NCBI GenBank assembly: GCA_052327205.1
Contig: CM126215.1
Span: 79,422,001 to 79,486,000 of the forward strand
Source: Somniosus microcephalus
Lineage: Eukaryota
Reading direction: 5' to 3'
Length of the DNA: 64,000 nucleotides
Shown here: one piece after another, positions 8,854 to 62,000 of the stretch
Layout of the letters: the number at the start of each line of letters is the position of its first letter
Numbering within the stretch: position 1 is the first letter of the stretch
Notes under the pieces: generated by a model
Told to the model about the DNA's origin: nothing
Seen by the model: only the letters and a program-made list of their open reading frames with translations
The model's database searches: none
Program-made: the position numbers and the translations under genes

Positions 8854-8854
8854 A

Positions 8855-9143
8855 TGTAGGAGTCTACGTACTCCTAGCAAAAAATACTGAACTTGGAGAG
8901 GTTCAACAGAAAAGGTTTAATTCTTGAGACTGCATGTTGAACACAAAATGGCGTCAGAGCCTACCCCAAGTCTGACTGCTTTTCATCAGTCCACAGCTTC
9001 GACTGCTCCTCCCCCGCTCTGGGCTTAACTATGTTGCAGATCGAGTTTCTTAAAGGTGTGATCCTTCTTAAAGGCATGACGCCTGATTTATAGTCTACGG
9101 ACCGAAAAGCGGATTGTGTCCTTTCTGTGGTCGGTACGCCACA
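8855..9143 (-). repeat. 5' LTR of Gypsy element 1
   Basis: Direct repeat of 4706-4994, adjacent to the PBS. Confidence 0.96.
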
Positions 9144-15163: not shown

Positions 15164-15375
15164 TGTTGTGTCGGTACCTTTCTACCTAGACACAATTTAG
15201 GACTCAGAACTCAGAGATTCAAACATGAAGTGCTTTATTGGAAGGAAAGGAAGTTATGGCAAGTTCCGAACAAAGAGAGCTAAAACTTAACAGAGAACAC
15301 CCAACCATTTATCTCCTGTGACAGCGCCACCACAGGTGGGAGGAGAACACACAATAGAACACACAATACATAACA
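15164..15375 (-). repeat. 3' LTR of Gypsy element 2
   Basis: TGTT...AACA termini; repeat of 19595-19801. Confidence 0.93.
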
Positions 15376-15530
15376 TTTCCTCCCCTCTTAAATGGAAGGT
15401 CCACATTATTCCTCAACAGGTAAGTTACTTTCAATGCACTCAACGAACCTAGGGTAGAGGTAGACTGCCTCAAACCCTGACTTTACCCTGGGGTTTATTC
15501 TGCCCCAGTCTTGTGGGTAAGTCACTAAGC

Positions 15531-18500
15531 CTAGAGATCCAAGCGTCTTGGAGGCCGCCGCTCTCTGACAGGATACCGGCGGTCATCGCTGGCTTCCACA
15601 GCAGTAGGCATTGACACAGGCCTGGATGGAGAAGGTGCCTGTGTCAGTTGAAAGTCAGGAGTTTGCACAGGTGGAACAGTCTCTTTGACTTCCTGTGTTG
15701 GAGAAGAGCACTGTGGCAAAGGATGCTGGTTTGCGGTATCATCCGGAAACAGTTCAGGCCAACCAGCCGTTGGAGCCTCTGTGGCTGTCTCTGCTCCTAG
15801 CAACAGTTGATCTGTGTGTTTTTTCCAGACGACGTCCTCAGCAGTCTCAACCGTGTAAGACACAGGGCCCGTCTGCGCGATCACCATAGCAGGAACCCAT
15901 TTCGGTCCAGTGTTGTAGTTTCGAGCTAGGACGTGCTCTCCCGGATGAAACCGTCTCTCCTTGGCTCTTTTCTCTCTCTTTTCAACTTGAGCTTGTTGTT
16001 GACAATGGACAACCTGTTCTGCCCTTGGAGGTTTGAGTAAGTCAAAACTTGTCCGCAACTGCCTCTTCATCATGAGCGAAGCGGGGGAAGTTTTGGTTGT
16101 GGCATGCGGCTCGTTCCTGTAGGACAACAGGAAGCTGTTCAGACGTTGGTGGATTGAGCCCTGACCTTGCGATGCCTTCAAGGCGTGCTTCAAAGTTTGC
16201 ACAAACCTTTCTGCCTGGCCGTTAGTAGAGGGATGATAGGGCGCAGACCTGATGTGTTGGACACCATTCACATGCAGGAAGGTTGCAAACTCCTGTGATA
16301 CAAATTGTGGACCGTTGTCACTTACGAGTTGTTCTGGTGAGCCATAACGGCTGAACATCTCACCAAGTTTCTCAATTATTTTCTCTGCCGTGGTAGACCT
16401 CATCACAGCGACCTCCAGCCACTTGCTACGAGCGTCCACAACCACCATAAACATCTTCCCTTCGAAAGGACCGGCGAAGTCCACATGTACTCGCTGCCAC
16501 ACTTCTGCAGGCCAATCCCAGGGGTGTGGAGTTGCCAGCTGTGGAACATTCCGGACCCTTTGACATGGGGAACATGTTTTGGCTTTCTCCTCAATATTCC
16601 CATCGAGACCTGGCCACCAGAAGTAGCTTCTTGCCATTTCCTTCATCCGAACCATCCCACTGTGGCCTGTATGAAGTTGTTACAGTATAGGTTCCCTCAG
16701 AGGTGGCGGAATAATGACACGGCGTCCCCAAAGAAGACAACCTGCCTGGACGGAGAGCTCATTTCTTTTTGAAACGTAAGGTTTCAAACTAGGAGAATCT
16801 CCTATAGCTCTCCCTCGAATGACATCGTCCATTACCTCAGACAGGACTGGATCGTTGCGGGTGTACCTTCGCACCTGAACTGCAGTGACAGGTGCTCCCT
16901 CCACTTGTCTAAAGTAGAAGATGTCTATCTGACGAGGCTCTGGGGGAGTAACAGGCAAGGGTAGCCTCGAGAGACCGTCTGCGTTGCCGTGCAAGTCTGA
17001 TTTGCGATATTTGATGTCGTATGTGTGTCCTGACAACAGTAAAGCCCACCTTTGCATCCTGCTTGCAGCGAGAGACGGAATTCCGGTGTGGGGCCCGAAG
17101 ATTGAAGTCAATGGACGGTGGTCCGTCAGGAGTGTGAACCTTCTCCCAAACAGGTACTGATGAAATTTTCGAATTCCAAAAACGATTCCCAAGGCCTTGC
17201 GCTCGATCTGCGCATAGTTACTCTCGCCTTGTTCAAGGTGCGTGATGCGAAGGCGATAGGTTTCTCTTCACCCGAAGGCATGATGTGGGATATGACTGCT
17301 CCCACACCATATGGTGATGCATCACATGCTAGCTGCACGGGTAGCTTTGGGTCGAAGTGTGTCAGGACCTCCAAATTCAGCAATGCTTTCTTTGCTTGGG
17401 CGAAAGCTTCGTTGCACAGTCCAGTCCATTTCCATGATTTGCCTTGACATAGCAACTGATGTAACGGCTTCAGCAATGTTGCTAAGTCTGGAATAAACTT
17501 CCCATAGTAGTTAAGTAGCCCCAGAAATGAACGTAACTGGCTCACATTCTGGGGTGCTGGGGCCTCCACGATCGCCTTGACCTTTGGCGGCGCCTTATGC
17601 AGGCCAGTAGCGTCAATCACATGCCCCAGGTACTCAACTGAAGACTGAAAGAATTCACATTTGTCTTTACGAACTCTGAGTCCGTACTCTTTCAGTCGTT
17701 GTAGTGTCGCATCTAAGTTCAGAAGATGATCCTCTTCATTTGTCCCAGTGACAAGGATGTCGTCCAGGTAGCACTGGACTCCTGGCAGTCCACTCAAAAT
17801 CTGATCCATTGCCCTTTGGAATAGAGCAGGGGCCGATGTAATTCCAAACGGAAGGCGGCAGTACCTGTATAGCCCCTTGTGTGTCACAATTGTCAGCAGC
17901 TCCTTTGATTTGTCATCGACATGCATTTGTAGATAAGCCTGGCATAAGTCTATTTTGCTGAACTTTTGCCCTCTGGCCAGGCCCGTAAAAAGATCATCAA
18001 TGAGGGGAAGAGGGTGCTGTTCCACAGACAGCACCGGGTTAATAGTCACTTTAAAATCCCCGCAGATTCGAACAGATCCATCCTTTTGCAGGACAGGAAC
18101 AATGGGTGTGGCCCATTTGCTCACGCTCACAGGCTCCAGGACTCCATTCTCGACTAAGGCCTCCAAGTTAGCCTCAACTTTTGGCCTAATTGCATAGGGT
18201 ACAGGTCGGGCTTTGTGAAACTTCGGCTTGCTGCCAGGTTTAATGTCCAGTCTCACGCTGATCTTTTTCATGCTCCCAAGTTCCCCATTGAAGAGTTCTG
18301 CATGTTTGTTTAACACTGCAGTCAGACCTGACTCCCCTTTTGACATCATGCGGTCTGCAGGCCAGTCCAGCGTGATTTTCTCTAGCCACGCACGTCCCAG
18401 TAGCGATGGGTAATTTCCCTTTACCACATATAGTGGCAGTTTTGCAGTCTGTCCGTTCAATTTAACTGTCACCTCAATGACGCCTCTCATGGCCACAGGT

Positions 18501-19516
18501 TCGCCGGTATACGTCTTTAGCACAATGTTTGTTGGCTGAAGGGTAAGATGCTTTAGCATTTTGTTGTAGACAGTGTCTGAAACAAGGGACACAGCCGCGC
18601 CTGTGTCCACCTCCATCCGCACTGATTGTCCCTCCACCAGTGGTGACACCCAGTAGCCATTTGAACCACCTGCAACCGTCAGTATGTGCACCCCTTCCTC
18701 CTCAGAGGTGTCGCTCCCCTCTGTTTTGCTTGTTCCATCATACTGCACTGAATGAACCCTCTTTTTCCTCTCTTGTCCAAATACAGACATTTTGCTTCCA
18801 TGCTTCCCAGCTCTGTCTGTTCTTTTTTTACCTCTACAGGCGCGTTCAATGTGACCCTTTTTGCCACAATTTCGGCATTCCAGCTCCGTACACCAGCAGT
18901 CATTAGCGTGATGGCCCGTTTTCCCACAACGGTAACATGTGCCGTTCCGCGCACCTTTAGGCTCAGACGACACCTTGTGAACTCTCCCTGTTGAACTCAA
19001 CTGGTGAGCCTCCTTTTCCGCCATCTCCATGGAGACACTAACTTCAATGGCCTTTTCAAGAGTAAGGTTGTCCTCAGTAAGAAGGCGCTTCTGTGTGGCT
19101 GCATTTTGCAGACCACACACAAGTCTGTCTCTAATGGTATCATTCAGCACCTCCTTGAACTGGCAGTGTTCCGACAACCTTTTTAAAGCAGCAATAAACA
19201 TCGTCACTGATTCCCCCTCCTCTTGATTACGTTTGTGAAATCTAAATCTCTCAGCAATAACCAGAGGTTTTGGTGAAAAATGTGCTCCAAGAATTTCCAC
19301 TAGTTGCTTATATGTTTTAGTTCCTAGCTTATCTGGCTGCACGAGGCTGCGAAGTAAATTGAAAGTCTTCGGCCCGATTACACTCAAAAAGGTAGGCATG
19401 ACCTTTTCATTTGCCACCGCATTCGCCAATACAAATTAATCAAAACGTTCCGTATATGCGCTCCATTGCTCCACATTTTCATCAAAATCACCGATGTTTC
19501 CTAATATAGTAGCCAT
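15531..19516 (-). pseudogene. Single-ORF gag-pol with three lesions
   Basis: ATG at 19516; stop near 19437; two CCHC knuckles; VDTGA protease; YLDD; DASPYG; frameshift near 17225; stop at 16680; integrase HVDFAGP..SDNG..ERFV. Confidence 0.9.
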
Positions 19517-19594
19517 CTCACGTTTCAAATTAAATTTTCTGTTTACTCACTGCACCCGTAACGTACGCAGATTCATCCGCTCCTCGTTGCCACT

Positions 19595-19801
19595 TGTTGT
19601 GTCGGTACCTTTCTACCGAGACACAATTTAGGACTCAGAACTCAGAGATTCAAACATGAAGTGCTTTATTGGAAGGAAAGGAAGTTCTGGCAAGTTCCGA
19701 ACAAAGAGAGCTAAAACTTAACAGAGAACACCCAACCATTTATCTCCTGTGACAGCGCCACCACAGGTGGGAGGAGAACACCCAATAGAACACACAATAC
19801 A
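19595..19801 (-). repeat. 5' LTR of Gypsy element 2 (5 bp short)
   Basis: Repeat of 15164-15370. Confidence 0.93.
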
Positions 19802-21126
19802 TGGGGAAGCTCGCTATCCTGGCAAAGCCACATGTGTGCTGTTCAGAGAGAAGACAATGAAGTCCCTTTTCCTGGAGTAGAGGGCCTCTGTGACCTCCCA
19901 GATACAACGATGGATGATGAACTGGGAGATGTTAGCTATGTCGCCTGCTGCAGACTGGAAGGATCTGGTGTTGAAAAAATTGAGTGACCTTGAGGGCCAC
20001 TGGGAGAGCCATGGTTGCCCTGCTCGAAGGCTGCAGGTCTGGTTGCAGGAGGTGGCAGAGTTCTATGACCACCTCCTTGGTGAAGCGGAGCCTCCTAATG
20101 CACTGCTCCTGGCTTAAGTGCAGGTAGGAGAAGTGCTCTCAGAAGACCTGAGGTGGGTCAGGCCTCCTGCTGAGAGCCCTCCTGCTCCTCCTCCTCCTCC
20201 CTCTGCAAGCATCTTGTCCTCTTTCCTGCCTCCGCTCCATCACCTTATCATACGCAAGCGTGAGGGGGACTGCAAGTAGTGGCCCGGTAACTGGGAACAA
20301 GTGGTATGAGCAGAAGCCTTTAAATGAGAAGCAAGACCTTTTCCACTTGCAGCAACACTACCTGTGACCTCAGCAACTTTAAACAACTTTAGAAAGCTCC
20401 AAGTAGTTGCACAAACTTAGGCAGAGCCAGTAGAACTGAAAAAGCAAGTCAGCTGCAAATTGTTGATGATCCCTTCAAATAGCGCTGGGGGCTCCTTCCT
20501 GCTGTTGAACGCTTGGTCAGCTGGTCGTGATTAGGAGAGGGCGGTAAATGGAGCGGCAACGTCCAAAATGGCAGATCGTGTGTCAAATCAGCGTTGCACA
20601 CTCACTGACATCATAATCTGCCTAATCTAAATATCTGGAGTGAGAACTGGCAACGGCAGTGCTACAGACCTCACCAAAATCCCAGCCGCCGCGGGACTCA
20701 CCAGAAGCGGACGGAAGCAAGTCATCCGTCATTTTCTCATCAAAACGGGCCTTAACGGCCGGCGCAAAACTCCCAAATTTCAAGGCCGAAGAATTTAATG
20801 GACTAAATGGCCTTTTATGTACCATAATGTTTTATATTATTATTTTTATTACGACTGATAATGGCATAAACATCTTGAAGACCATACAATACTGCAATTG
20901 CAGTATTGTGCATTGTTTTGCACAGCCACTAAATCCTGCTGTCAGCTGCACACTGGATAAACTGATAAACAGTAATCTTTGTGCAGCACCCTCACCTGTT
21001 TCTCTAGTCTTTGCAAGTATTTCAAGAGATCAGAGCCACTGGGGTTGTAGCAAGTTCAACAGAAGAATCCTTAACACTGCATTATACAAGACTTTCAAAT
21101 TAGGTGGCGGTCTTATATTTTATATT

Positions 21127-24695: not shown

Positions 24696-26109
24696 AAATC
24701 ACTGTACACATCCTTTAGCTACCAAAACCCAAACGAAAGAATGGAAATACTTGCATGTATATAATAGTTTACCATGTCCCGAACACTTATATAAAAAAAA
24801 TATATTTTTGAAGTGCAGTGACTTGTTCTTAAGGGCATATTGCCCCTCATTGGAGGGATATACAGGGTTGCTGAGGCTTTTGATATGCATGCTTGGACAG
24901 ATGTGCTGAAAGCAGATCTCTTTGTGGGAGTGGGGCTGGAAGCCTTTCGGACTGGGTGGGTCAGGAGCAAGCCCAATTTTTTTTGAACCAGTGGAACCAG
25001 AGTAAAAAGAAGCACCACTGGGGGTCAAAAACAGGGGGGGGGTGCAGTGGAGCTGGAGGTGGCAGCTTTAAAAAAAGTGTCTGCAAGAGTAGAGTAGTGA
25101 CAGCAATTAGGAGTCTCTTGCATTGTACTGCAAGTAGGTAGCAGCAAGGTTTGCAGCCAAGGTCCTCCATGTGCCATACCATCAATCTCAGTTGTGCTGA
25201 TGTGAGGTCAGCAGAAGGTTCCACAAACAGCAAATGAGATGAGTAACCAGTTAATCGATAGATAGAATAGACAGAATTGGAGTAAAGCTAATTAAACACT
25301 GTTACAGTTTGGGCATTCTCTCAACTTGTTTATTCATAGTCATGGGTAGATGACAGTTCCCATATTAGACTGAATCGCTTATGGACAGAAAGCTGTGTCT
25401 TTATTCTCCATGTGTAAGTTTAGCATGACCAGGTTGAACAGTTAACCCCTAACACAATATATTGCTTACTGGAAAATTCATGGGAGGCCCAAAATGTTCT
25501 CATCACCTCAGAAATCAGAAAGGAAACACAATGCAATGCCAGTGCTTACAGGCTAAAACTACTTAGTCACATTTATTTATAGATGAAATAACGTACAAAA
25601 GCAAAAGTACCCAGCAAGCTACTAATACAGTAAAATAATCAAACTTACAAAATATATGAATTGTTGACAAACAAAAAAAGGCAGAGTCTGAAATCCTAGT
25701 TCTTTCAGTAAGTTTGTAATACCAGTCACTAATGGTGATCATGGGAGGGGATCACTTTTGTTGTTCATATTCATACTCCGAGTAAAGGCTGGGTAACATT
25801 CAAGAGTAAGAATACTGAGAGAGTATGTAGGTTATAAAATGAATTTTCCTTTGAAGACCAAGCAATTAATAGTCAGATAATCAAAGTGTAACCATTTTTT
25901 AACATTTTGATGTACAATGCATAAACTGAGATTTTTGTTTGGCAGTACATTGCTTTTAACAGCTAACTCTATCTGTGTGGTTGAAATTGAATCAGCATAT
26001 GAAATACCTTTTGTGCAATAATTTAGGAACAAAGACTCACTAGTTTTCAACATGACACACTGGGATGAACTTTCCTCTGCAATCCTGCTCGCAATGGTGA
26101 GAAAATGTT

Positions 26110-27511
26110 ACCAATACGTTATCCTGACATCATTAGTAGGGAAAATGCTAGAATCTATTATTAAGGACGTGGTAACAGGGCACTTCGAAAGTAATAATAG
26201 GATTGGGCAGAGTCAACATGTATTTATGAATAGGAAATCGTGTTTGATAAATCTGTTAGAATTTTTTGAGGTTGTAACTAGCAGAATAGATGAGGGGGAA
26301 CCAGTGCATGTGGTATATTTGGATTTTCAGAAGGCATCCGATAAGGTGTCACACAAGAGGTTATTAAACAAAATTAGGGCTCATGGGATTGGGGGTTATA
26401 TACTAGCGCGGATTAAGGATTGATTAACGGACAGAGAACAGAGAGTAGGAATAAATGGGTCATTTTCGGGTTGGCAGGCTGTAACTAGTGGGGTACCACA
26501 AGGATCAGTGCTTGGGCCTCAGTTATTCACAATCTACATCAATGATTTGGATGAGGGGACCAAATGTAATATATCCAAGTTTGCTGATGATACAAAGCTA
26601 GGTGGGAATGTAAGGTGTGAGGAGGATGCAAAGAAGCTGCAAGGGGATATCGACAGGGTTAAGTGAGTGGGCAAGAACCTGGCAAATGGAATATAATGCG
26701 GAGAAATGGGAAGTTATCTACTTTGGTAGGAAAAATAGAAAAGCAGAGTATTTTTTAAATGGTGAGAGTTTGGAAAATGTTGGTGTTCAGAGGGACCTGG
26801 GTGTCCTTGTACACGAATTACTGAAAGTTAACATGCAGGTACAGCAAGCAATTAGGAAAGCAAATGGTATTTTGGCCTTTATTACAAAAGGATTGAGTAT
26901 AAGAGTAAAGACATCTTACTGCAATTATATAGAGCCTTGTTGAGACCGCACCTGGAATACTGTGTACAGTTTTGGTCTCCTTACCTAAGGAAGGATATAC
27001 TTGCCATAGAGGGAGTGCAACGAAGGTTCACCAGACTGATTCCTGGGATGGGGGGATTGTCCTATGAGGAGAGATTGAGTAGACTAGGCCTATATTCTTT
27101 GGAGTTTAGAAGAATGAGAGGTGATCTCATTGAAACATACAAAATTCTTACAGGGCTTGACAGGGTAGAGGCAGGGAGGATGTTTCCCCTGGCTCGGGAG
27201 TCTAGAACCAGGGGTCACAGTCTCAGAATAAGGGATCAGCCATCTAGGATTGAGATGAGGAGAAATTTCTTCACTCAGAGGGTGGTGAATCTTTGGAATT
27301 CTCTACCCCAGAGGGCTGTGGATGCTCAGTCGTTGAGTACATTCAAGGCAGAGATCGATAGATTTTTGGATATTAAGGGAATCAAGGGATATGGGGATAG
27401 TGTAGGAAAGTGGAGTTGAGGTAGAAGATCAGCCATGATCTTATTGAATGGCGGAGCAGGCTCGAAGGGCCGAATGGCCTACTCCTGCTCCATTTTCTTA
27501 TGTTCTTATGT
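26110..27511 (+). mobile_element. CR1 LINE, 5'-truncated and frameshifted
   Basis: RT motifs [20 protein letters not shown]; tail (ttcttatg)n. Appears to sit inside an older minus-strand LINE relic (about 25800-27950). Confidence 0.93.
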
Positions 27512-33717: not shown

Positions 33718-34702
33718 CAAATCAAATCAAATCAAATCAACTTTTATTGTCATTGTTAGTGCACAAGTGCAGTACAACGAAATGTAGGCTTGCGGCTCCC
33801 GAGAGTGTACAATTTGGATTAGGACACTTAAACATTTCAACATACATTTGTACATATATATTAGCATAAATATGACCATAATAAAGTGCATCGGCAGATG
33901 TGCAGGCTTTAGTGTTTATTTGTGGAGTTCAGTAGGATGACAGCCCTGGGAAAGAAGCTGTTCCTAAATCTGGTCGTGCGGGTGCGAATGCATCTGTAGC
34001 GTCTTCCAGATGGTAGGAGGGCGAACAGACTGTGGCTGGGGTGGGTAGGGTCTTTGATGATGGACCGTGCCCTCCGTAGGCAGCGTTTCTGATATATATG
34101 TTCTATGGTCGGTAGCCGGGTGCCGGTAATGCATTGGGCAGTTTTGACTACCCGCTGCAGGGCTTTCCGGTCATGGGAGCTACAGCTGCCGTACCATACT
34201 GTGATACAGTTTGTCAGGGTGCTCTCTATAGTGCAGCGGTAGAAGTTAGAGAGGATCGGGGGTGACAGATTATATCCCTTCAGCCTCCTCAAGAAATATA
34301 GGCGCTGCTGGGCCTTCTTCACCAGAGAGGAGGTGTTGAGGGACCAGGAGAGGTCTTCCGTGATGTGGACTCCGAGGAACTTAAAGCTGGCCACCCTTTC
34401 CACCTCCGCCCCATTGATGTGGATGGGGGTGTGACTTCCGCCTTTGGACTTCCTGAGGTCCACGATTATTTCCTTTGTTTTCTTGGTGTTAAGGGCCAGG
34501 TTGTTGTCGGCGCACCACTTCACGAGATGCTGGACCTCCTCCCTGTAGGCTGACTCATCGTTGTTGGTGATCTGGCCTACTACCGTGGTGTCATCTGCAA
34601 ACTTGATGATGGTGTTGGAACCATTAACAGCCACACAGTCGTGGGTGAAGAGGGAGTAGAGGAGGGGGCTCAGCACACATCCTTGTGGGGCCCCCGTGTT
34701 CA
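33718..34702 (-). mobile_element. Rex1/Babar-type LINE, 5'-truncated, RT C-half still open (33909-34702)
   Basis: GAPQGCVLSPLLYSLFTHDC, KFADD, KKAQQRLYFLRRL, HPSHSLFALLPSGRRYR; (ATTTG)n tail; 5-bp TSD GGCTT. Confidence 0.88.
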
Positions 34703-36088
34703 GGCTTGTATCCCAGGTTGCTAAGGGAATTGGGGAAGGAGATAGTGGAAGCGCTTGCCATAATTTTCCAATCTTCCCTAGACGTGGGGGAGGTGCATGA
34801 GGATTGGAAAGTGGCAAATGTGACACCATTGTTCAAGAAAGGGTGTAAGGAGAATCCTAGTAACTATAGGCTGGTCAGTTTAACATCAGTGGTGGGTAAA
34901 GTTTTAGAAACAATAATCAAGGAAAAAACTAACGGGCACTTGGAGAGGTTTAAGCTAATTAAGGAGAGCCAACCAGATTTGTAAAAGGCAGATCATGTTT
35001 GACTAATCTAATTGAATTTTTTGACGAAGTAACAGGGAGGATTGATGAAGGGAATGCAATGGATGTTGTCTACATGGATTTTAGGAAGGCGTTTGACAAA
35101 GTACCACATAGAAGGCTGGTTAACAAAATTGAGGCTCATGGAATAGGTGGGTCAGTGGCAGCTTGGATGAGGAATTGGCTTAAGGACAGAAAACAGCGAG
35201 TTGTGGTAAATGGCTGCTTTTCAGACTGGAGGATGGTAGACAGTGGTGTTCCCCAAGGGTCAGTGCTGGGGTCACTGCTTTTTTTGATATATATAAATGA
35301 CCTGGATATTGGAATACAGAGTAGAATTTCTAAATTTACTGATGACACCAAACTTGGGGGTGTGGCAAACAGTGAGGATGATACCAAGCGACTGCAACAG
35401 GACACAGAAAGGCTAGCTGAATGGGCAGACAAGTGGCAGATAGAATTTAATACAGAGAAGTGTGAGGTGATGCATTTTGGCAGAAGGAACAGAGAGGCAA
35501 TATACACTTAATGGCACAGTTTTAAAGAGTGTGCAGGGACAGAGGGACCTGGGAATTAATGTGCATAGGTCTCTGAAGGAGGCGTGACATATTGAGAGAG
35601 TGGTTAACAAAGTAAGTGGGATCTTGGGCTTCATAAATAGAGGTATTGAGTACAAAAGCAGAGAAGTTATGCTGAACCTTTATAAAGCGCTGGTTAGGTC
35701 ACAACTGGAATATTGCGTCCAGTTCTGGTCACCACACCTTAGGAAGGATGTGAAGGCCCTTGAGAGGGTGCAGAGGAGATTTACCAGAATGGTTCCAGGG
35801 ATGGGGGATCTTAGCTACAAGGACAGGTTGGAGAAGCTGGATTTGTTTTCATTAGAGCAAAGGAGGTTGAGGGGTGATTTAATAGAGGTGTACATGATTA
35901 TGACAGGTTTGGATAGGCTAGACGGGGAAAGGCTGTTCCCACTAGTTGATGGTACAAGGACTAGGGGACACAGATTTAAGGTTTTGGGCAAGAGATACAG
36001 GGGGATGTGAGGAAAAACTTATTTACGCAGCGAGTGGTGAGGACCTGGAACTTGCTGCCAACGGAAGTGGTGGAAGCGGAGACACTCA

Positions 36089-38559: not shown

Positions 38560-39400
38560 GGGCTCGAATTTATCAATGGGGACGTGATGGAGGCGGAACT
38601 TCCACTTTTTGGGTTGTAGTCCCGCCTCCATCGACTTGTGGCCAACCCACGCTATTTTCCCTTAATTGACCTTGTTAAGCCCACCCAGCGGGCTCAACAG
38701 GCCAATTAAGGGACACCTGGTTACTGGTGACATCAGCGATTGACATTTCATCTGTCAAGAGCTTTTGACAGATGAAAAATCAGCGTTTGACAGCTCTGTG
38801 AAGCTGTCAAACACTGACAATCTGTCTTCTAACTTGAGTCCTTCTACTCAGACTCAGAGAGCTCTCCAGACCAGAAAGCAGAATGCTGCAGCTTTTGACA
38901 GTTCAGCGGCCATTCTGCTTTCTGTGCCGGTGAACTGAGGGATTCCCGAGAACTGAAGGAAGGAAGCCTGCAGGAGAAAGTAAAGGTAAGTAAGCCTTAT
39001 TAAAACACTTTACACTTACCTCACACACTTACCTCTGCACACATGCACCCATCACTCACCTGCACAACGGACATCTCAACCCCTCCAACCCCTTCAGACC
39101 GACGGTCCGCCTCGCTAACTTGGCGTGGTTCGGAGCCTTCGGGAAGCCCACACTTCAGGGCTAAAAATAGGGATTAGGCAAAAAACTGCCTGTTAACTAC
39201 CTGTTAACAGGCAGTTAATTGGCACTAATCCCCTTCCCGCCTCAGGGAGGCGGCTCCCAGTACAGGTCGGATACTTGCCTCCTGGGACATTGGCACGGAG
39301 GCGGGTTGGGGCGGGATGGATTTCTGCCCCCCCGATTCTGCAATTTTCCCACTACTCCCGCCTCTAAACCCGCCTCCACGGGGCTTGGAAATTCGAGCCC
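38560..39400. mobile_element. Harbinger MITE (841 bp) nested in a Harbinger element
   Basis: Perfect 12-bp TIR GGGCTCGAATTT; TSD TAT; related inverted copy at 52326-53158. Confidence 0.9.
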
Positions 39401-39591: not shown

Positions 39592-41396
39592 TCACCATCC
39601 CTTGCGCACTTCCCCCCTTCCCACCCTACTGCTCCTCTGTAATGGGGCCCCAGTGGCTGCAGCAAGGCTGGTGGAAGGCTGCTGAATGTCAGATCCTGAG
39701 ACTACAGATGCCCTTGAAGGACACCCTCCACCAGCTCTGGGCCTGGAAGCCCCAGCTGCAGACTGCACCAACTCTGCATGGGCGGCAGCAGTCTGGGCTA
39801 GTTGTGTTGCAGGCGGTGGCAAGTGCAATGGGGAAGTGACAGTGGTGGGAGCAGGAATGCTGTCATCCTGAGAGAGGACAGCATCTCCCTGCTCAAATGA
39901 CACACTGGCACTCCCACGGGGCAGCACCTCAGCATCCGGAGCAATCTGCTCGAGCACAGATTGCTGGCCTGCTGTGGCACCATGAGAGCCCCGGGGCAAT
40001 GTAGCTGAACCAGCGACGATGACAGCAGTCAGTGCTTGCGTTGCCTCTATCTGAGACTGCATGAGAGCAGTCTGAGATTGGATCACAGCAGCCAGTGACT
40101 GAATTGCAGCACTAAGCAGTTGCGTTGCATCCGCCTGTGCTGTAACGGAGTGCTCCACACTCCTTACCAGTCCATCAATGCTTTTGGGCACCCTTCCCAT
40201 TGCACCCATGAGCTGAGTGTGCATGTTCACCGCCTGGGTGTTCATTTCCGCGATCAGCTGCTCCTCCTCTGCGTCCAGTGCAGCAGGACGCGCTGGCCTA
40301 CTCTCCCTCCGGGGAGATGGCCCCCGAGCTTCCCTAGCCACATGGCATTGCTGCAGCCCGCTGGGTCCTGGAGCTTCACCCTCATTAGACCCTTCCCCCC
40401 TGCTCCCCTCCAGGGACGACGTGGTCCCAGTGTGGGCATGGGCTCTCTCGGGAGACGCTGGTGCTGAGGCTCCGGCTTCCTCTTCCTCCTCGCCTGCGGC
40501 TTCGCTCTCACTGGCTGGCTGAGGGCCCGTCACCTCAGCTGGTGAATCACCATCTGAAAGCAGGGAGGTACAAGAGTGGCTTTAGCGTCAGGACAGGGGA
40601 GCAGTAAGGGAGCAAGGACTGGAGCAGTTTAGTAAGTTGGATTGAAAGTGTAAAAGGCTGGTGTTGTGAGGGACAAGTGGAATGAGAGAGGAGAGAAAGC
40701 TGATGAACATACCACTGCTGTCCCGAAGGGGGTCAACCTCTCCAGCGGCCACGGGGCCGATCACCTGGCTAGCGATGATCCTGTGGACGCGCGCCTCCAG
40801 ATCGCTGAGGGTTTGCAGCTGAGGCGGCCCTCCACCCATCCGTTGCTGCTGCCGCCTGTTGTGAGATAGCTTGGCCTGCAAGTAAAAGGACGGCATCTGA
40901 GTAAATATGCAGCCATGGTCTTGCCTGATGTGCCTATCATAGTTGAATAGTCCTTAATGTATGCAGCCATGTGCTTGCCTGGTGTGCCTCCCATAGTTGA
41001 ACAGCCCTTAATGAATGCAAGGTGTGGAATGTGCGTGTGTGTTTAATGAGATGGCCATAGGTCTTGGATGAGTGTTGGGCACTGGGGTTTTTACACCCTC
41101 TGGCCATAGAGTGAGGTTGAGATGGAGGGATGGAGAGGTATTGAAAAGTAGCCACTCACCATGACCACCCGAGTGAGGTCGTTGAACTTTTTCTGACATT
41201 GTGTGTGGATCCTGGGCACCATGCTCCTGGAGGAGATGTGCTGAGCCACTTCCCTCCACACTCTTTTATAGTCGCGGGGCAATGGCCTCCTGCCACTCTC
41301 TGGGTACAGTATTGATCTTCGGCACTGCACTGCACCAACCAGAGCCTCCAAGGCCCAGTCACTGAAGCGCTGAGCTCGTTCCCTGGCTTTCTCCAT
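39592..41396 (-). CDS. Harbinger Myb/SANT-like DNA-binding protein, 3 exons (41396-41160, 40875-40713, 40553-39592), 453 aa
   Basis: MEKARERAQRFSDWALEALV..W.EVA..QCQKKFNDL; GT-AG introns in phase 0 and phase 1; the exons sum to 1362 nt with no internal stop. Confidence 0.82.
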
Positions 41397-42732
41397 AGTC
41401 CTTTGCAGCAGCTTTGAGGTTGAGGTCTGTCCAGGCCGAGATTCAAGGCTACAATGAGCAGGGTGTGGCTGGAGAGCAAGATCGACCCTCCCCTTTAAGA
41501 ACTGGCCGGCGCCAGTGTGTCTGTGTTCCATCGCTAACTGACATCACCTGAGCTTCGCCCGTGCTCTGAGTTAGTGTCTCGCTCCTCGGCCGTTGCGCCT
41601 TATGACAGATGTGTAGCACCTGATTTAGCGCTGCAATCACCTCAAGGGCCAATAGAAGCCAAGTTTGCAGTCGGAGGCGATAATTTGCACCAGCCGCTAA
41701 ACTTTGCGCCCGGCCGATAAATGCGCACCAAATGGGGCGATACCGAATTTCTCCCCCTATGACTCTTAACAAGAGAGAAAATAACAAATGCCAAGTATTG
41801 GTAGTAAAGCTAGGGGAGGTTATCAAAGGCATGGTAAAAAGGAAAGGATTTCAGGAGGCTTTTAACAGTAAAGAACATAGCGAGGCAAAGCAGTTTAGGG
41901 AGCAAGTTCAAGAGCGTAGGACAAAGACAGGGAGGGAGAGCTTTGGTAGAGTGGAGGGCTCATGTTGGATTGGAGAAGATTGCTAGTTAGGGAGGACTAG
42001 GCCATGAAAGGATTTCTTTCTCACCACATTCACTGTGAGGAAACAAGAACTCTTTATGGGTCTAAATATGGGCACAAACATGCTACGCAAAACAAGCAAA
42101 GTTATGTTTTCATATGCAGTGGGGACCTGTAAATATAATTGTCATGGTTGTACTTATCTTGCAGAAAGAAACACAGGATAAATATTAATAAATACATATA
42201 ATGTTGGCTCAAATACCAAAAATAAAAGAATTAAAAACAATTTAAGAGCTGGAAGCCCATAAATATCTTTAATCTATTTCATTAATGACATTGCTGCATT
42301 TTCTATTGTTAAAAACCTTGAATATTAGGAACCTATGACAAATAGGAGTTTTGCATCACTACGTGAATAATCAAATTGATTATCATTGGAATTAAAGGGA
42401 ATTGAGTGTGCAAAGAGCTTCCAGGCATTGTGAGTTAATTGTTTTGTGGTTACCCACGTTTCCCACTTCACTTATTCTATTTATGCTGAATGGTAATATA
42501 CTAAAAGAAGGCAAATAATGATCCTTTGGGCTTGGTATTGCACTGACCTGAATTATTTTTAAATTAAAGTTTTCCAAACCTGAGTGATTCAACAGCTGAA
42601 CTCTGATTGGCATGAATTTTTAATTTTTTTTAATTTTAAAATGTGAACATTTTATTTACAGTTAATGACATTTACAGAGTGTCTCAGCTCTTTGTACAAA
42701 GTCACAAGCCATCATTCCCTATGAGGCAGGGA

Positions 42733-45465
42733 TCCCAGTCTCTTCAAGTTGGTGATGTGATCTCTAAGCTTCTTGATCATCTTCACTTGTTCATCCAGAT
42801 TGTGGGGGGTTGATTTTAACTCAGGTGCAGGGAATTGTCGGGTTCCCCGAATTTGGTGTTTCCCACATGATTCTAAATGGGTGTGTGAGATTGATGCAAT
42901 TTTAACTCAATTGGCCAATTGATTTCCAACGTGTGGGAACCCTTGGCAAATGAGTATTTCCAGTCAGAAAGTCGCATAATATGACGTCATTATTGCTGCT
43001 GCATTTAAGGTCTGCAACATGCCTTGCTTCTTCTGCAGGCTGCCAACCTTTTGGCATTTGCTGATACACTGAGCTGGAAGCAGAATGGCAAGAGAAAGAC
43101 CGAAGTCTGCACCCTGTTTTGACGACGTTGCCCTGCAGGCTTTAATGGAAGGAGCAAGAGCTCACAAGGAGGTGCTCTTCCCTTCATCAGGGAGAAAGAT
43201 GCCTCCCCAGCAGACAAAGGCTGCGTGGCTGCAAGTGGCAGAGGAGGTCAACTCCTTATCAGCTACCCGCAGAACCTGGATACAGTGCAGGAAGAGATTT
43301 CATGACCTTCAGCACACTGGAAAAGTGAATATGAAGTTCCCATCACTCTCAATCTGATCTCCATTGCCTCTCCTCACCAGCACTCAACTTTAGCAATCTC
43401 TCCCTCCACATCCCACTTGACACTGACATCCATGCACCCTTACCCATTCCCTCTCTCTCTATGCTCACATTCACCTAACTATTCGACTATGCAGCCCTCA
43501 CACTCCCGATCACTCTGATGCTATGAAAACAACTGACAACACACAGGGAGGGCCCTTGGTCTTGCCACCTCACTCCATCTTTGTCTCCTTCTAAGCAACT
43601 ATGCTATGGAATCTCTGCACTCACTCCTTCATTCTCACCCAAACTCCACTTGTCTCCCTCATTGCAGGAAAAGAGAGCTCACAATAAAAGAGAATGAGCG
43701 AGGACAGGAGGAGGGCCACCATCAGTAGCCTACCTCACCCCCTGGGAGGAAGCGGTCCTGGAGATCGTAGGACTGGAGGATGAGGCGCAAGTGGGGGACA
43801 GACAGATGGGTGCATCACAGCAAGATGGTGACAGAATAGTTTTCCATCTCTCTCATTGACATTGCATGAGTCGCCGATAATGATTCTGAAGCTATAGCAG
43901 ATGGACCTATGATCATCTGCAATATGCAATGTACATGTAACCTTGACCTCACACCTCTAACTCTTTCCTTTACTCCCCCACAGGACCATTGAGAGCCCCC
44001 GTCCCCACTGTCCAGGAGGAAGAGCCTGAGCTTCCAGACTCCTCAGAGGAATCTGCAACCTCTGAGGGCGCAGCGTCAGCAGAATTCAGTGCACCCAGCA
44101 CCAGCGCAGACACTCACACCTCGGTGGGACCTTCGGGACATAGAGTAGTGTTGTCACCTGGTGTATCACAGCTCACAAGTGAGCATCAGCAGATTGTGGA
44201 GACAGGGACAGCAGTGGAGAGTGCTAGTTGGAGGGTGCAGGACTCTGCCAGCTCGGCTCAGCTGCATGTTGACCCTCTGCCTCTGGGTCCATCCATAAGA
44301 TCAGCGGGACTGGAACTCCAGGAACAGATGCAGGAGTCACTGGCAGGATTTGTCTCCAGGGTCGATGTGAGTGTGGAGCGAATGGAGGAGTCCATAGCGA
44401 ACATGAGCAGAGCCTTTGTGGAGTCATTGGCGCATGAACGCATCACCATGGAAAGGATGGCAACCTCCATGAAGGAGATAAGTCGCCAGGGTATGGAAAA
44501 CATGGTGAGTGTTCATAATAGAATGACATCTCTTGAGGAGCGATGGGCATCTATTGAACAGAGAAACCAGACCTTCATGGAAGTCCTTCTGAGTAGGACT
44601 GCCAGTGCAGATACGGGTCCCCATGGCCCCCTGATGTGCAGCAAGGTGCTTTCAAGCCACTTCCAAGCGCTGGCCCCTTCTGGCCTGTGCAGCTTCAGGT
44701 GGGTGAGCAGCAGCCTGGTGCTCCTGTTGCTGCTGCTGTTGTTCCTGGTTCTGCTGGTGCCACGGCTGGTGTTCGAGCTCATCTAATGCCCAGATGTGAA
44801 GGAAATAAATGGTTCCCATGCTTCTGGCATATGCCTCTGTTGAGGAAGCACTGAGTGAAGGTGGCGAGCGGGGTTTCCCAGGAGGTCACACTGGAGATGT
44901 GTGAGAGGCTCCAACCTTCCACAGGTGTGGTTAAGCCTGGTAAAAGTTGCCCCAGGCCTGAAACAACAAAGTCCTACCACCTGCAAATGATGACTGATCA
45001 AATCTCCTCTTTAATGGTTGACTTGCAGCTGATAGTCAGCAAGCCAATAATGCTCACACCAGGTTTCACAGGCGTGATCCCCACCAGGCGTGTTTTACGT
45101 GGGAAAAGGGTTAAAAATGCAAGGGCCTGTTGAAATGGGATTATAAAGGCCAATTATTGCTGATTAAGGGCCTTAAAGACCAGTCCTGCCTGTTGGAGGT
45201 GGGACTGATTCATGACCATCAGACACACCTGGGTTAAAATGGCTCGGGGTCGGGAACCAGACGGGGGGTGGGGTCCCGACCCCCAGTTTTTGTGATTTTT
45301 AACCCCCCACATGCCTCAAAGCCTGCCTCATGGCTGAGTTAAAATCGACCCCTGGGTCTCCAGGAATTTACACAAATGAGGGTCGGCGCTCCCAGTGGAG
45401 AGTTTGTGCAGATCCAGCAGACTCTGGTTGACATTCTTCTCCATCTGCAGGGCTCTCTGCATCGC
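42733..45465 (-). pseudogene. Ferritin (heavy/middle type) intronless C-terminal fragment, split by a Harbinger insertion
   Basis: [37 protein letters not shown] (45465-45353) joins HNLDEQVKMIKKLRDHITNLKRLG (42805-42733) after removing the insertion and one TGG. Confidence 0.92.
42806..45352 (+). mobile_element. Non-autonomous Harbinger with a Myb gene and no transposase core
   Basis: TIR GGGGT(T/C)GATTTTAACTCAG; TSD TGG; Myb exon 1 at 43085-43324, exon 2 from 43668 (contains a stop), exon 3 from about 43985; only a Gln-rich MGTIY.. stub on the minus strand near 44690-44820. Confidence 0.9.
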
Positions 45466-45676
45466 CGAGCGGAGCCTCCCACTCTCCCGGCCAAACAAAT
45501 GAAATGTAAGGGAACTTAAAATACTTAAATTAAGTTTAAGACATATCAAATTAAACCAAAATAACATTGGCTGGGGTGATGATGCACTCCAGTCCCCGTT
45601 GCACCCACCGGTCTCGGAAGGCCTCAAGTGTGCCGGCGGACACCGCGTGCTCCATCTCCAGGGCCACCCGGGCGTG
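45466..45676 (-). mobile_element. Tx1/L1-like LINE ORF2 C-terminus and short 3' UTR
   Basis: 45676-45551 reads [41 protein letters not shown], resembling the F..RW end of Tx1-clade ORF2 (recognised from memory). Confidence 0.7.
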
Positions 45677-46803
45677 CTGATTGGCTTGAATTAGGGTTTA
45701 ACCAAAATCAGGAATGATTTTGTCATAAATGGTGAAATCCGCCTGCATGACTTAATGCTCATTAAATAAAATAACATGATACATCTGATTCCAACAGAAT
45801 CGAAATGGTAATCGCTGGGTAACGAGCTTTTCTTTCGATGGGCTTTTGTGTTGGGGATGTGGGAGAGTGGTGGGGAATGGACTGTGCCTAGTCTTTTTTC
45901 CTCAGTTTCCAATTTCCTCCTCTTTCTCTCTCCTATCTTTAGAGGCGACTTATATTGGGTTATGGTTCCACAGTTGCTGACCACACTCTGGTACCTCACC
46001 CAACTGGTTATTCTTTATATGTGAGCCTAAGCAGTGGGCTGTAGCAGACTAGTCACACTGATGGTTTTATAGCTGAGTGCGTTCCTGCTCTCACCTGGCA
46101 TTTCCACATGTGCATTTTCCAGCAGGGGACAATAATGAGTGGGTACCCTTGCTGATTTTTCAGGGACCAAATTTAGTGCCCTTACTGCTGCTCTGACTAA
46201 GCACTAACTAGAGATCAAAACTGACTTCCTTTCACTCTGTATGGATCAATACCACACTATCACTGGTGGAGCAGGAGTGTCTAACGGGGAGCCACAGGTA
46301 GCCAAATATATTGACCTCAAGGGTCGAGTGTGTGATGGGAAGAAGGAATGTCAGTTCTAGCTAGTTGAAGTCTTATGAAGAAAGTATTTTTTCTTCTTTC
46401 TCCTACAATTTTCTTTGCTCCTGTCCTGAAGGGATTGCCTCCTTGCTGGGGTTTGGTTCCATAGCTGCCAGATATCCTCTGGTCCAAGCGTCCATTAGTT
46501 ACATGTCAACCTTGAAAGTGAGTGTCATCTGGCTACTCCATGCAGAGGATATCACAGTCGAGCCCAAATCCGTCCTCACCCCATAGCCACACACTCGCAC
46601 TTCAGCAAGGATTACTGGAAAAATGATGAGAAGCAGGAACCCTCTCTTAATTTGGTCTCCTTAATGTAGGCACACTAAGGCCAATTGTAACAATCTTACT
46701 GCTACTCTAGCTGACAGCAGATAATTCAGTGCAGAGTGAGTATCCTGGTAATCAAACCTGCAAACTTCTCGATCTGTCTGCCTTTACTACCCATTTGAGA
46801 AAC

Positions 46804-48580
46804 TTTATAATGAATTTATAATGGGGAACAAAGAAATGGCAGACCAATTAAATACATACTTTGGTTCTGTCTTCACAAAGGAGGACACAAATAATCTCCC
46901 AGAGATGTCGGGGAACATAGGATCTAATGAGAGGGAGGAACTGAAAGAAATCAGTATTTGTAAGGAAATGGTGTTGGGGAAATTGACGGGATTGAAGGCC
47001 GATAAAACCCCAGGGCCTGATAATCTACATCCCAGGGTATTTAAGGAAGTGGCCCTAGAAATAGTAGATGCATTGCTGGTCATCTTCCAAAATTCGATAG
47101 ACTCTGGAACAGTACCCATGGATTGGAGGGTAGCTAATGTTACCCCACTATTCAAAAAAGGTGGTAGAAAGAAAACGGGGAATTATAGACCGGTAAGCCT
47201 GACATCGGTAGTGGAGAAAATGCTAGAGTCCATTATAAAAGATGTAATAGCAGAGCACTTGGAAAGCAGTGACAGGATCGGACAAAGTCAACATGGATTT
47301 ACAAAAGGTAAATCGTGCTTGACTAATCTACTGGAATTTTTTGAGGATGTAACTGGTAAAATAGATAAGGGAGAACCAGTGGATGTGGTGTATTTGGACT
47401 TTCAGAAGGCTTTTGATAAGGTCCCGCATAAGAGATTAGCATGTAAAGTTAAGGCACATGGGATTGGGGGCTAGGTATTGACTTGGATAGAGAACTGGTT
47501 GGCAGACAGAAAGCAAAGAGTTGGAATAAATGGGTCTTTTTCCGAGTGGCAGGCAGTGACTAGTGGGGTACCGCAGGGATCAGTCCTAGGACCCCAGCTA
47601 TTCACAATATATATTAATGATCTAGACGAGGGAACTAGATGTAATATTTCCAAGTTTGCAGACGACACAAAGCTGGGTGGGCGTGTGTGCTGTGAGGAGG
47701 ATGCCGAGAAACTCCAGTATGATTTGGACAGGTTGGGTGATTGGGCAGAAGCATGGCAGATGAAATATAACATGGATAAATGCGAGGTTATCCACTTTGG
47801 TGTCAAAAACAGGAAGGCCGATTATTATCTGAATGGCAATAGATTGGGAGAAGGGGAAGTGCAACGAGACCTGGGTGTCCTTGTGCACCAGTCACTGAAG
47901 GTAAGCATGCAGGTGCAGCAGGCGGTTAAGAAGGCAAATGGTATGTTGGCCTTCGTAGCGAGAGGGTTAGAGTACAGGGACAAGGATGTCTTGCTGCAGT
48001 TGTACAGGGCCTTGGTGAGACCACATCTTGAGTATTGTGTGCAGTTTTGGTCGCCTTATCTGAGGAAGGATGTTCTTGCCATGGAGGGAGTGCAGCGAAG
48101 ATTCACCAGGCTGATACCTGGGATGGCAGGAATGACATATGAGGAGAGATTGGGTCGATTGGGCTTATACTCGCTGGAGTTTAGAAGAATGAGAGGGGAT
48201 CTCATTGAAATTTATAAAATTCTAACAGGACTAGACAAACTAGATGCAGGAAGGATGTTCCCGATGGTGGGGAAGTCCAGAACCAGGGGTCACAGTCTAA
48301 GGATAAGGGGTAATCCATTTAGGACAGAGATGAGGAGGAATTTCTTCACCCAGAGAGTGGTGAACCTGTGGAATTCTCTACCACAGAAGGCAGCAGAGGC
48401 CAATTCATTAAATATATTCAAGAAGGAGTTAGATATATTTCTTTAGGCTAAAGGGATCAAGGGATATGGGGAGAAAGCAGGGACAGGGTACTGAATTTGG
48501 ATGATCAGCCATGATCTCATTGAATGGCGGAGCCGGCTCGAGGGGCTGAATGGCCTACTCCTGCTCCTATCTTCTATGTT
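46804..48580 (+). mobile_element. CR1 LINE, 5'-truncated, RT region in one frame with two stops
   Basis: ORFs 46821-47474 and 47478-48446 (NYRPVSLTS, DFQKAFDKV, GVPQGS, FADD); tail ttctatgtt. Confidence 0.95.
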
Positions 48581-52325: not shown

Positions 52326-53158
52326 GGCCTCGATTTTAACTGACCCATGGAGTCGGGATTGGAGGAGTGCGGGGGTTTAAAGTCCCGAATTCGGGGGTCC
52401 CGACACCATCCCGCCCCCAACCCGCCTCCATGTAAGTTTCAAAGGAGGCCCCACACTGGGACCCGCCTACCCGAGGCGGGAAGGGATTAGTGACAATTAA
52501 CTGCCTGTTAACAGGTAGTTAACAGGCAGTTTTTAGCCTAATCCCGATTTTAAAGCTTGAACTGTGGGATTCCCGATGGCTCCAAACCACGCCAGGTTAG
52601 AGGAGTTGGGCCGTTGGGTTGAAGGACTGGGAGGGGTCGAGATGTTGGTGTTCAAGTGAGTGATGGGTGCATGAGTGCAAAGGTAAGTGTGTTTTGTGTG
52701 TCTAAAGTGTGTAAAGAAGTTTAAATTACCTGTACTTACCTTTTAAGCCTTCCTTCCTCTAGGTTTCGGGAGTCCATCATTCAGCCGGCACAGAAAGCAG
52801 AATGGCCGCGAGCTGTCAAAAGTGACAGCCTGCAGCTTTCAGTGCTGGAGAGATTTCTAACTGAGTCTGTGTAGAAGGACTCAGGTTAGAAGTAAGACTG
52901 TCAGTGTTTGACAGCTTCAAACAGCTGTGAAACACTGATATTTCATCTGTCAAAACGTCTTGACAGATGAAATTTCAGTCTGTGACATCACCTGTTGCCG
53001 GGTGGCCCTTAATTGGCCTGCTGAGCCCGCTGGGCGGGCTCAACAAGGTCAATCAAGTTAAAATCGCATGGATTGGCCGCATCTCGATGGAGGCAGGACT
53101 ACAACCCCGAAAGTTATAGTCCCGCCTCCTTCCCGACTTCTGAGTGAAAATCACCCTC
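52326..53158. mobile_element. Harbinger MITE, inverted relative of 38560-39400
   Basis: TSD AAC; ends ggcctcgatttt / aaaatcaccctc; collinear reverse-complement similarity throughout. Confidence 0.88.
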
Positions 53159-59092: not shown

Positions 59093-62000
59093 GGGCTCGA
59101 TTTTAATAGCTCTGAGGAGGCGGGTCCGTAGCGAAAATTGGAAAAAATGGCTCCAGACATCCAACCCGCCTCCATCTGCCCCCCGCCACCCCAATTTTTG
59201 TGAGTGTCTGTTTAGCTGCTCCCAAACTGACCCGACTGGAACCAGTGGGACAGGTAGTTAAGGCAGTTAAGAGCCTGTTAACTGCCTTGCTAATCCTATT
59301 TTGATAGTGGGTTCCCATTTTCGTGCTTCTGGCTCCTGTTTCCCAACTTGTCAGAAACGGGCCAGCTTCAAGGAGACGAGTTGCTGGAGGACATGATTTG
59401 TATTCATTGGTGGAGCGTTTTAAAAGCACCCCTGAAACATGGCTGACAATCAAATGCAACAACTTTGCTGTTGTAGGTTTGGGATAAGATTTTGCACATC
59501 TACTGAGCTTGTGACTGTTCAAGTTGACACCCATCTGCAGTGTGACCTGAATGGAATCATTTCAGGCCACTTCCACTGTGCGCTTGCAAGCTTGTTGCCT
59601 CAAATGAAATCTATAGCAAGGGGATGGGAAAAATTTATGTCCTCTCATCCTGGTCCTCATAATCGGAGGAGCAGCAGCCGCATGGCTCAGCGCAGCTCTT
59701 CCTGGGAAGAGGAGGAGGACGAGGGGCGCCTTGCGTGCCCTGTTGTGACCAATGCAGTATCCCTCCAGTTCACTGCTGCCCGTCAAGCAGGGTATGCACA
59801 CTGCCATGCCACATTAGCATAAGCTTACTCTTCAACCATAGGTGGCTACCATATGGCTCTTTAATTGCAGGCAACATTTGTCCAACGTTATACATTATCT
59901 CTGCTATACCCTGTTATATCTCTGCTATAACCTGTTATTTCCTATCACTTTCACCATCAGCATTAGAAAAGCAATTTGCCCTGAGCCCTCAATGTGCTTT
60001 TGCCATTTCCCAGAACGCATAGGCCACACAATCAACTGTTTGCCATAATTTTTCTTTTACACATGACAAAAGGATAATAAACCAACAACAGTCAGAAAAA
60101 AAGACAAAACACCCAAGTGAGTCCCCTTGTGACTATAGGTGTTTAATCTTTCTCTTACACGTGCTTCTACGTGATGCTTCCCCTGTGGCTTCAGCAGATG
60201 TAGAGGCACCTTGCTGACTAGGATGCTGCGCCTGCTTAGATGCCTTTGGCGGGCGTCCTCTGGGTTTGGGAGCCTGGGAGGGCTCTTCAACAGTCTGCTC
60301 TTCCTGCGGCTGTGCAGGGACTGAAACGGCCATCTCCGTTGTCTCCGCAAAGTGGGTTTCTGACCGAGGGTCCACAGTGGCATGATCGTGTGAGCGTTTT
60401 GAGAGGAGCCCACATTTCCTTGTGTCCTGCCAACAACATCCCTCTCGTGGGTCAGCCGCACCTCAGTGCTGGCAAGTGGCTGGAGAGCACCTTGCTGCAC
60501 ATCAGGGGGACCATGAGGAGGACTGCCAGTGCAGATACGGGTCATCACAAGGACGTCCACAAAGCTCTGGTCTCTCTGCTCAATAGCTGCCCATCGCTCC
60601 TCCAGAGATAACATTCTATTTTTAACAGTCACCATGTTTTCCTGATGCTGGTGACTTATTTCCTCCATGGCGGTAGCCAGCCTTTCCATGGAGGTACGTT
60701 CTTGCGCCTTTGCCTCCGCCACGGCAGTGCTGATGTTACAGATGGACTCCTCCATTCTATCCACACTCGCACTAACCTGGAGGCAAACCCTTCCAGAGAC
60801 TCCTGCACTTGTTCCTGTATTTCCCGAGATGCTCTTTTTCTGGATTACCCCAGAGGCACAGCATCTGCATGCAGCTCAGCAGAGCTAGGAGATTGCTGCG
60901 ACCTCTGCCGAGGACTCTCCACTGCTGTCGCTGTCTCCACCATCTGCTGATGCTTGTGCGCTGCAATAGACCAGGTGGCAACACTATTCTAACTCGCGAT
61001 GGCCCCACCGAGGTGTGTGTTGCTGCGCTGGTGCTGGGAGCACTGAGTCCTGGTGATGCTGCTCCCTCAGAGGCTTCAGGAACCTCTGAGGAGTTGTCCG
61101 GCTCTTTGTCCTGGATCGTGAGGAGGGGGGTGCTCGATGGTCCTGTGGGAGAGTAAAGGCATGATTTAGACATCTGATATTGATGTAGCAGACGCATCCT
61201 TTTGAGCAGATGATACAACGTGATTCTCTATGTACATCATATGCCATTGCTTTCTGAGAGGGATGAAACTCTATTATGTCACCAGCTTCCTCTAGTGTGG
61301 CCGTCTCTCCATCGCCCACTTCCAGGTCCTTGCCACCTCTAACAATCTCGTTTGCAGCCTCCTCTGCACTGGTCAGTGTGGCTAGGGTAGGTGTTCCTCC
61401 TCCAGTCATTGCTCTCTCCCCCTTATTGTGGGCTATCTTTTCCTGCAAGGAAGGACACAAGCGGTGTTTCAACTACAGTGATGGAGTGAGTGTGAATAAT
61501 CTCTGCTATAGAAGCTTTGAGGGAGACGAAGATGGGGTAAGGTGCCAAGAGGAAGGTAGCTCCCTGTGCGTTGCTAGTTGTTGTCACTGCATGACAGTGA
61601 GAGTGAGTCTAAGGGGTGCATAGGCAGGATGCTGAGGTGATTCAGTGCAGAGACAGAGATGGCTAGGTAAGGGTGCAAGGGAAGTAAGAGTAAGGTGGGA
61701 TGTGAAGGAGGAGGCTTACAACACAGAGTGCTGGTGATGAGAAGAGAATGGAAGCAGATTGAAGGTAAGTGTGATGGGATACTCACTTTTGATCGCACAA
61801 GATCATTAACCCTTTTTCGGTACTGGATCCATGACCGTGCATAAATGCACCTTGCGTTCACCTCCTGAGCAATGCACAGCCAGACTGCCTTGGTCTGCTG
61901 AGGAGGCTTCCTCTGGCCATCAGGAGGGAAGAGAATCTCCCTGCGCCCTCTGACAGCATCCACAAGAGCATGGAGGGAGTCATCATTAAATCAAGGAGCT

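Follow-up and report, generated by a model that had tools for sequence, protein, structure and literature searches.

Chimeric retroinsertions, in which a retroelement and a host RNA are joined within a single insertion, have been described in some detail. For the human SVA-CKS1BP chimera, which later spread as three copies, a switch from CKS1B mRNA to SVA RNA has been proposed on the grounds that poly(A) and a splice site are lacking at the join and that the mRNA is 5'-truncated (PMC12593883). RNA ligation as well as template switching have both been described for L1 (PMC11838501), and tripartite chimeras from Magnaporthe have been presented as multi-part products of repeated jumps (PMC2104539). 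The target sites listed for Tx1 elements in one account comprise snRNA and 5S genes, satellites, microsatellites and transposons, that list naming no protein-coding genes, and the related SINEU-3 produces a target-site duplication (TSD) of 16 nt (PMC4494074). In cartilaginous fishes 14,081 retrocopies have been credited to CR1 or Tx1 from the abundance of these elements (10.64898/2026.06.26.734816). Here we compare a unit from the Greenland shark Somniosus microcephalus with these systems, in which the end of a long interspersed element (LINE) of L1/Tx1 type is followed by a piece of ferritin. It occupies positions 42603-45692 of a stretch of 64,000 nucleotides (assembly GCA_052327205.1, contig CM126215.1, positions 79,422,001 to 79,486,000 of the forward strand), called the window below.

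Anatomy of the LINE-ferritin unit

The unit is enclosed by two direct repeats of 16 bp at 42603-42618 and 45677-45692, which agree in 15 of 16 positions and cannot be extended. In 293 random pairs of 60-bp and 300-bp pieces of the window the best match of a 16-mer did not exceed 13/16, and the 64 kb hold two near-exact copies of the 16-mer only. Read on the minus strand, the copy at 45677-45692 marks the 5' end of the unit and its partner at 42603-42618 the 3' end, and between them follow one another the end of a second open reading frame (ORF2), an AT-rich untranslated region (UTR), a GC-rich piece, ferritin codons, a UTR-like stretch, an AATAAA polyadenylation signal (42651-42656) and, after a spacer of 13 nt, a decayed poly(A) tail (42619-42637, 15 of 19 nt being A). 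The ferritin codons are split by a Harbinger-type transposon. When 42806-45355 is excised 540 bp remain, the two repeat copies counted in, and the reading frame of ferritin becomes continuous; a preliminary description of the window had given about 510 bp. A TSD around the entire unit, a polyadenylation signal with a tail at its 3' end and a truncated 5' end, at which ORF2 begins in the middle of a domain, are the marks of target-primed reverse transcription. A remnant of a further TSD was not found within the unit, where the best match is 10/16. As a single TSD pair encloses both parts and no such remnant lies between them, the structure points to a single integration event. The preliminary description had proposed that a Tx1-like LINE and ferritin were mobilised together as one polyadenylated, TSD-flanked unit, and the 15/16 repeat, the AATAAA and the A-tail bear this out; all the features it had listed were also confirmed where it had placed them. 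The unit is most likely a dead chimeric retroinsertion made by target-primed reverse transcription.

Its LINE part consists of the last 41 codons (45554-45676) and the stop of a 5'-truncated ORF2, which together occupy 45551-45676 on the minus strand. A phmmer search with these codons among 1.84 billion representatives yielded two relatives, P0086 (E 1.3e-5, 62% identical) and P0087 (E 2.4e-5, 59% identical), and a profile search with the LINE tail gave 18 matches among 3165 candidates. Because six of nine aligned relatives end in the same alignment column, the stop in the window is, by this comparison of sequences, taken as the natural stop of ORF2. Upstream of the corresponding region P0086 and P0088 contain a weak zf-RVT match which stays under the Pfam cut-off, and among the Atlas neighbours of P0086 (0.97) zf-RVT occurs in 13-38% of the members, with a recognition of 2176 below the threshold of 2300. 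The homologues and the sub-cut-off zf-RVT support an assignment of 45551-45676 to the tail of an L1/Tx1-type ORF2, and the LINE identity claimed earlier for this piece was upheld accordingly. The narrower label Tx1 is one we assume from resemblance, as the fragment does not contain a reverse transcriptase (RT) domain. A profile search of the PDB with the LINE tail gave no match at E<=10, none of 10 candidates from a word-based search of longer proteins with the 41-residue tail was a match, and an Atlas search with the same tail gave no usable match.

Between the LINE stop and ferritin lie 85 nt which had been described as one UTR without poly(A). The absence of poly(A) stands, with neither AATAAA nor ATTAAA nor a run of more than three A in these 85 nt, but the sequence is made of two distinct pieces on the minus strand. 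The first, 58 nt with 21% GC (45493-45550), is presumably the LINE 3' UTR, judged from its position after the stop. The second, 27 nt with 78% GC (45466-45492), has no second copy in the window and no match in the fetched proteins. It is not ferritin exon 3 either, the 30 nt upstream of ferritin fitting this exon at 9/30 positions, no better than shuffled sequences with a mean of 11.2.

The ferritin part is encoded on the minus strand in two pieces, which contain residues 96-132 (45356-45465) and 133-156 (42733-42805) of the multicopy shark ferritin of 176 amino acids and match P0006 in tblastn at 35/38 and 22/25 residues, respectively. Of the 61 amino acids encoded, 57 are identical to Pristiophorus records, and over 60 residues other groups of sharks and rays reach 52-54 identities against 56 for Pristiophorus. 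Shark and ray records were returned almost exclusively by the ferritin search. In gene models of sharks 17 of 76 sites leave the ferritin sequence immediately after the residues DPH, 21 sites having been flagged and four of these dropped as simple substitutions, and in five of the 17 the next residue is valine, as expected from reading through a GT splice donor. These protein gene models would place an intron of the parent genes at DPH|LC. The window copy crosses this position without an intron, which is the hallmark of a processed pseudogene, and since the intron is absent the ferritin piece is considered to have passed through spliced RNA. Its 5' break falls 12 codons into exon 3 and not at an exon edge. 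At the other end the last 20 codons and the stop are gone, and they were found nowhere in the window. Behind LKRLG the sequence agrees with the expected codons at 15 of 30 positions, again no better than shuffles (mean 13.4), and the stretch at 42657-42732 (minus strand), which has no match elsewhere in the window and no six-frame protein match among the fetched proteins, is probably distal ferritin 3' UTR brought next to the codons by an internal deletion. Thus the earlier sequence of a ferritin piece ending in LKRLG, AATAAA and an A-tail is correct, but it had been overlooked that ferritin is cut at both ends. With 61 of 176 codons retained and these split by a transposon, a function of the insert is very unlikely.

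An open frame which crosses the junction (45331-45690) was considered as a fusion gene and rejected, its 75 N-terminal residues matching none of the 83 hits of the ferritin search. The two top-scoring of these hits are only internally duplicated ferritin models.

Possible origins of the join

We favour, at about an even chance of being right, that the chimera was made by reverse transcription starting on ferritin mRNA and continuing on LINE RNA, either by a template switch or by prior ligation of the two RNAs. An L1/Tx1-type ORF2 protein would have nicked an ordinary site outside ferritin, and a spliced mRNA from a gene of the multicopy shark ferritin type would have provided the poly(A) tail for priming. 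Copying would have proceeded back into ferritin exon 3 and from there moved onto the 3' UTR of the protein's own LINE RNA, or would simply have run on if both RNAs had been ligated beforehand. After about 210 nt more it would have stopped, which would leave the 16-bp duplication, and the Harbinger-type transposon would have inserted later. The switch may have occurred at this site or, before that, in a founder copy of full length, presumably in an oocyte. For the Greenland shark 155 and 179 ferritin gene calls have been reported, about 80% of them in three clusters of which the largest is ovary-specific in expression, and more than 200 gene calls are given for this largest cluster (10.1101/2024.09.09.611499). 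An ovary-expressed ferritin cluster would be a plausible supplier of a germline template. A template switch is favoured because LINE poly(A) is lacking at the join, the join lies within an exon away from its boundary, and the mRNA is spliced and 5'-truncated, the same kind of evidence as was used for SVA-CKS1BP. The preliminary description had offered a switch from ferritin mRNA to LINE RNA as one of two origins, and it gains support from these observations.

Several points weigh against this origin. The unit contains two further discontinuities, the 27-nt GC-rich piece and the loss of the C-terminal codons, which could equally well be explained as long-standing damage to the DNA of a donor locus. 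In U6/LINE-1 chimeras the order is reversed with the LINE at the 3' end, the screen reported there having covered only sequence 5' of L1 (PMC11838501). The UTR of the LINE need not be truncated, as its family may naturally end at this point. Finally, related LINE tails are located upstream of ferritin genes in another shark, Heptranchias perlo, which favours read-through.

Such read-through is the core of 3' transduction, the main alternative, which we consider less likely but possible. A full-length LINE residing within a ferritin cluster gene or retrocopy, or upstream of one, would have been transcribed through, the transcript spliced and ended at the ferritin poly(A) signal, and the product mobilised in cis, the LINE 3' UTR having become fused to exon 3 through loss of the DNA between them or through an insertion without a tail. 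As a rule 3' transductions stem from read-through (PMC12593883), and a decayed donor would easily account for the extra lesions. Two of the 83 ferritin-search hits, P0082 and P0085 from H. perlo, begin with a same-strand LINE tail which is related to that of the window, being identical to it at 17/22 residues and thus about as close as the best match P0086 (18/23). These tails were detected with a hidden Markov model of ten LINE tails, eight of which came from the profile that included part of P0082, so that the finding is not fully independent; for the same reason it was not counted as enrichment that both named hits of the profile search are ferritin fusions. The two models, named 'ferritin heavy chain B-like', start with 50-60 residues of the LINE ORF2 tail and the ferritin behind it is frameshifted. 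From their sequences they look like annotation chimeras that mark a LINE fragment on the same strand as a duplicated ferritin pseudogene and upstream of it. Neither model has the breakpoint of the window. P0082 has its tail ahead of the start codon of ferritin, and when the frame is shifted the linker agrees with the N-terminus of ferritin at 11/13 positions, controls reaching at most 6, while in P0085 the join is just before exon 3. With 48 of 50 residues identical at the N-terminus the two probably represent one duplicated event, and being predicted models they may combine exons which are far apart. In addition an A-tail is missing at the LINE-ferritin junction of the window, whereas the poly(A) of the element is usually kept at the junction of 3' transductions. 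If 3' transduction were nevertheless the origin, sister copies with the identical junction and different TSDs would be predicted.

Two successive insertions at one nick, of a ferritin retrocopy and then of the LINE, joined by a later deletion which took the LINE tail, the middle TSD and the 5' part of ferritin, are very unlikely. Tandem insertions which sandwich a TSD are known for SINEU-3, for which mobilisation by Tx1 has been proposed (PMC4494074), and one further deletion, if not more, has occurred in the unit. However, a single site would have had to undergo three events, a TSD remnant is lacking within the unit and no repeated target can be recognised in the flanks. Still more improbable is that exon 3 of the clustered ferritin genes is the target of a Tx1 family which regularly relies on the ferritin poly(A) signal downstream. 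Target specificity is found in many families of the Tx1 clade (PMC4494074) and the shark ferritin genes are multicopy, but the target site of the copy itself is not ferritin, agreeing with the ferritin sequence behind the junction in 2/16 positions (one site), and for this reason targeting is unlikely. No other ferritin sequence occurs in the 64 kb or in the flanks, none of the 83 ferritin-search hits is broken at the codon of the window, and a ferritin domain is absent from all 16 other LINE-tail proteins. The idea of a ferritin-targeting LINE family, raised in the preliminary description, could consequently not be maintained, the lack of an A-tail between LINE and ferritin also speaking against it.

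As for the site of insertion, Rfam over 40000-48000 gave a single sub-threshold microRNA match which was taken as chance, and, the A-tail itself aside, the target contains no microsatellite. At the breakpoint of the window none of the 83 ferritin-search hits joins foreign sequence, a weak negative as such loci are seldom annotated as proteins. It appears unlikely, though less so than ferritin targeting, that a full-length Tx1-type lineage in the ovary-expressed ferritin clusters had its own 3' end replaced by the spliced 3' half of ferritin with its poly(A) signal and spreads as a ferritin-tailed subfamily, using the cluster as a germline-expressed niche and giving rise to part of the dispersed shark ferritin copies. 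Should the junction recur with different TSDs, it would identify a LINE subfamily that carries a host-mRNA tail and can be traced, and the approximately 20% of ferritin gene calls in sharks which lie outside the clusters may then in part be LINE cargo.

Nested transposon and other elements in the window

The Harbinger-type DNA transposon within the ferritin codons (42806-45352, plus strand, 2.55 kb) has inverted ends at 42806-42824 and 45334-45352 which match at 18/19 nt, and a duplicated TGG flanks it on both sides. It contains a Myb/SANT open reading frame at 43073-43354 (PF13873, E 5.9e-10) and is 71% identical over 1.57 kb to 60464-61977 of the window. Short inverted ends, a 3-bp duplication and a Myb/SANT gene, as known from PIF/Harbinger elements, are thus present; a DDE_Tnp_4 transposase was not found, and three transposase open reading frames of the window had no tblastn match inside 42806-45352. 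From its sequence the element is probably non-autonomous. Being nested, it would have arrived after the chimeric unit. The CpG ratio is 0.28 in the transposon and 0.75 in the LINE tail although the transposon is nested and hence younger, and CpG was therefore not used for dating. Two related 0.8-kb elements, at 52326-53158 and 38583-39400, are 79% identical to each other, and the former has ends resembling those of the nested transposon and AAC on both sides. This suggests 3-bp duplications of variable sequence in these families. Several Myb/SANT and Harbinger transposase remnants are present in the window.

The DNA of the window is rich in repeats and of shark type, and among 60 open reading frames of at least 120 amino acids no host protein-coding exons were recognised besides the ferritin fragment. 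A retrotransposon with long terminal repeats (LTRs) at 4702-9144 has LTRs of 294 bp which are 98.3% identical, an observed/expected CpG ratio of 0.96 and long minus-strand frames for a gag-like protein of 406 and a pol-like protein of 946 amino acids; it looks young. A second LTR element (15164-19802, 208-bp LTRs, 98.6% identical) is nested in a Harbinger transposase gene, the halves of which are at 14479-15210 and approximately 19983-20162. Four diverged RT-bearing LINE copies, which we take to be CR1-like by resemblance, are 64-78% mutually identical (8-1130, 26022-27504, 34801-36078 and 46752-48580, the last with PF00078 at 47475-48443). Distinct from these is an RT-like frame of 307 amino acids on the minus strand at 33909-34832.

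Comparison with described chimeras

A LINE-type element 5' of a processed mRNA within one TSD is a structure already known in kind. For ferritin, Tx1 or sharks no report of it was found in the literature searched, a search outside which lay most subscription journals, Repbase Reports and bioRxiv supplements. Even if it happened only once, the insertion gives a physical link between an L1/Tx1-type LINE and the copying of host mRNA in a shark, a link that a vertebrate-wide preprint infers from element abundance (10.64898/2026.06.26.734816).

With SVA-CKS1BP it shares a retroelement at the 5' end, a short intervening piece, a 5'-truncated spliced mRNA at the 3' end and one TSD, with neither poly(A) nor an evident splice site at the join (PMC12593883). 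It differs in that the carrier is the tail of an autonomous-type L1/Tx1 LINE in a shark, that the coding part of the mRNA is cut at the 3' end too and that one copy is known. The same-sense fusion of two or three RNAs in one TSD-flanked event is common to the U6/L1 and mRNA/L1 chimeras (PMC11838501) and those of Magnaporthe (PMC2104539). In the U6/L1 and mRNA/L1 chimeras, however, the LINE is the 3' part on which priming takes place (PMC11838501), whereas here the host mRNA would prime and the LINE stands 5'. In L1 and SVA 3' transductions, too, host sequence comes after the 3' end of the element, together with a poly(A) signal downstream, a tail and a TSD (PMC12593883), but in the shark unit the junction is without element poly(A). 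The C-terminal tail of ORF2 is of the L1/Tx1 type as in Tx1L, Keno, Kibi, Koshi and Tx1-Mar (PMC4494074), and in contrast to the target-specific LINEs of the Tx1 clade the target of the shark unit is neither an Rfam RNA nor a microsatellite.

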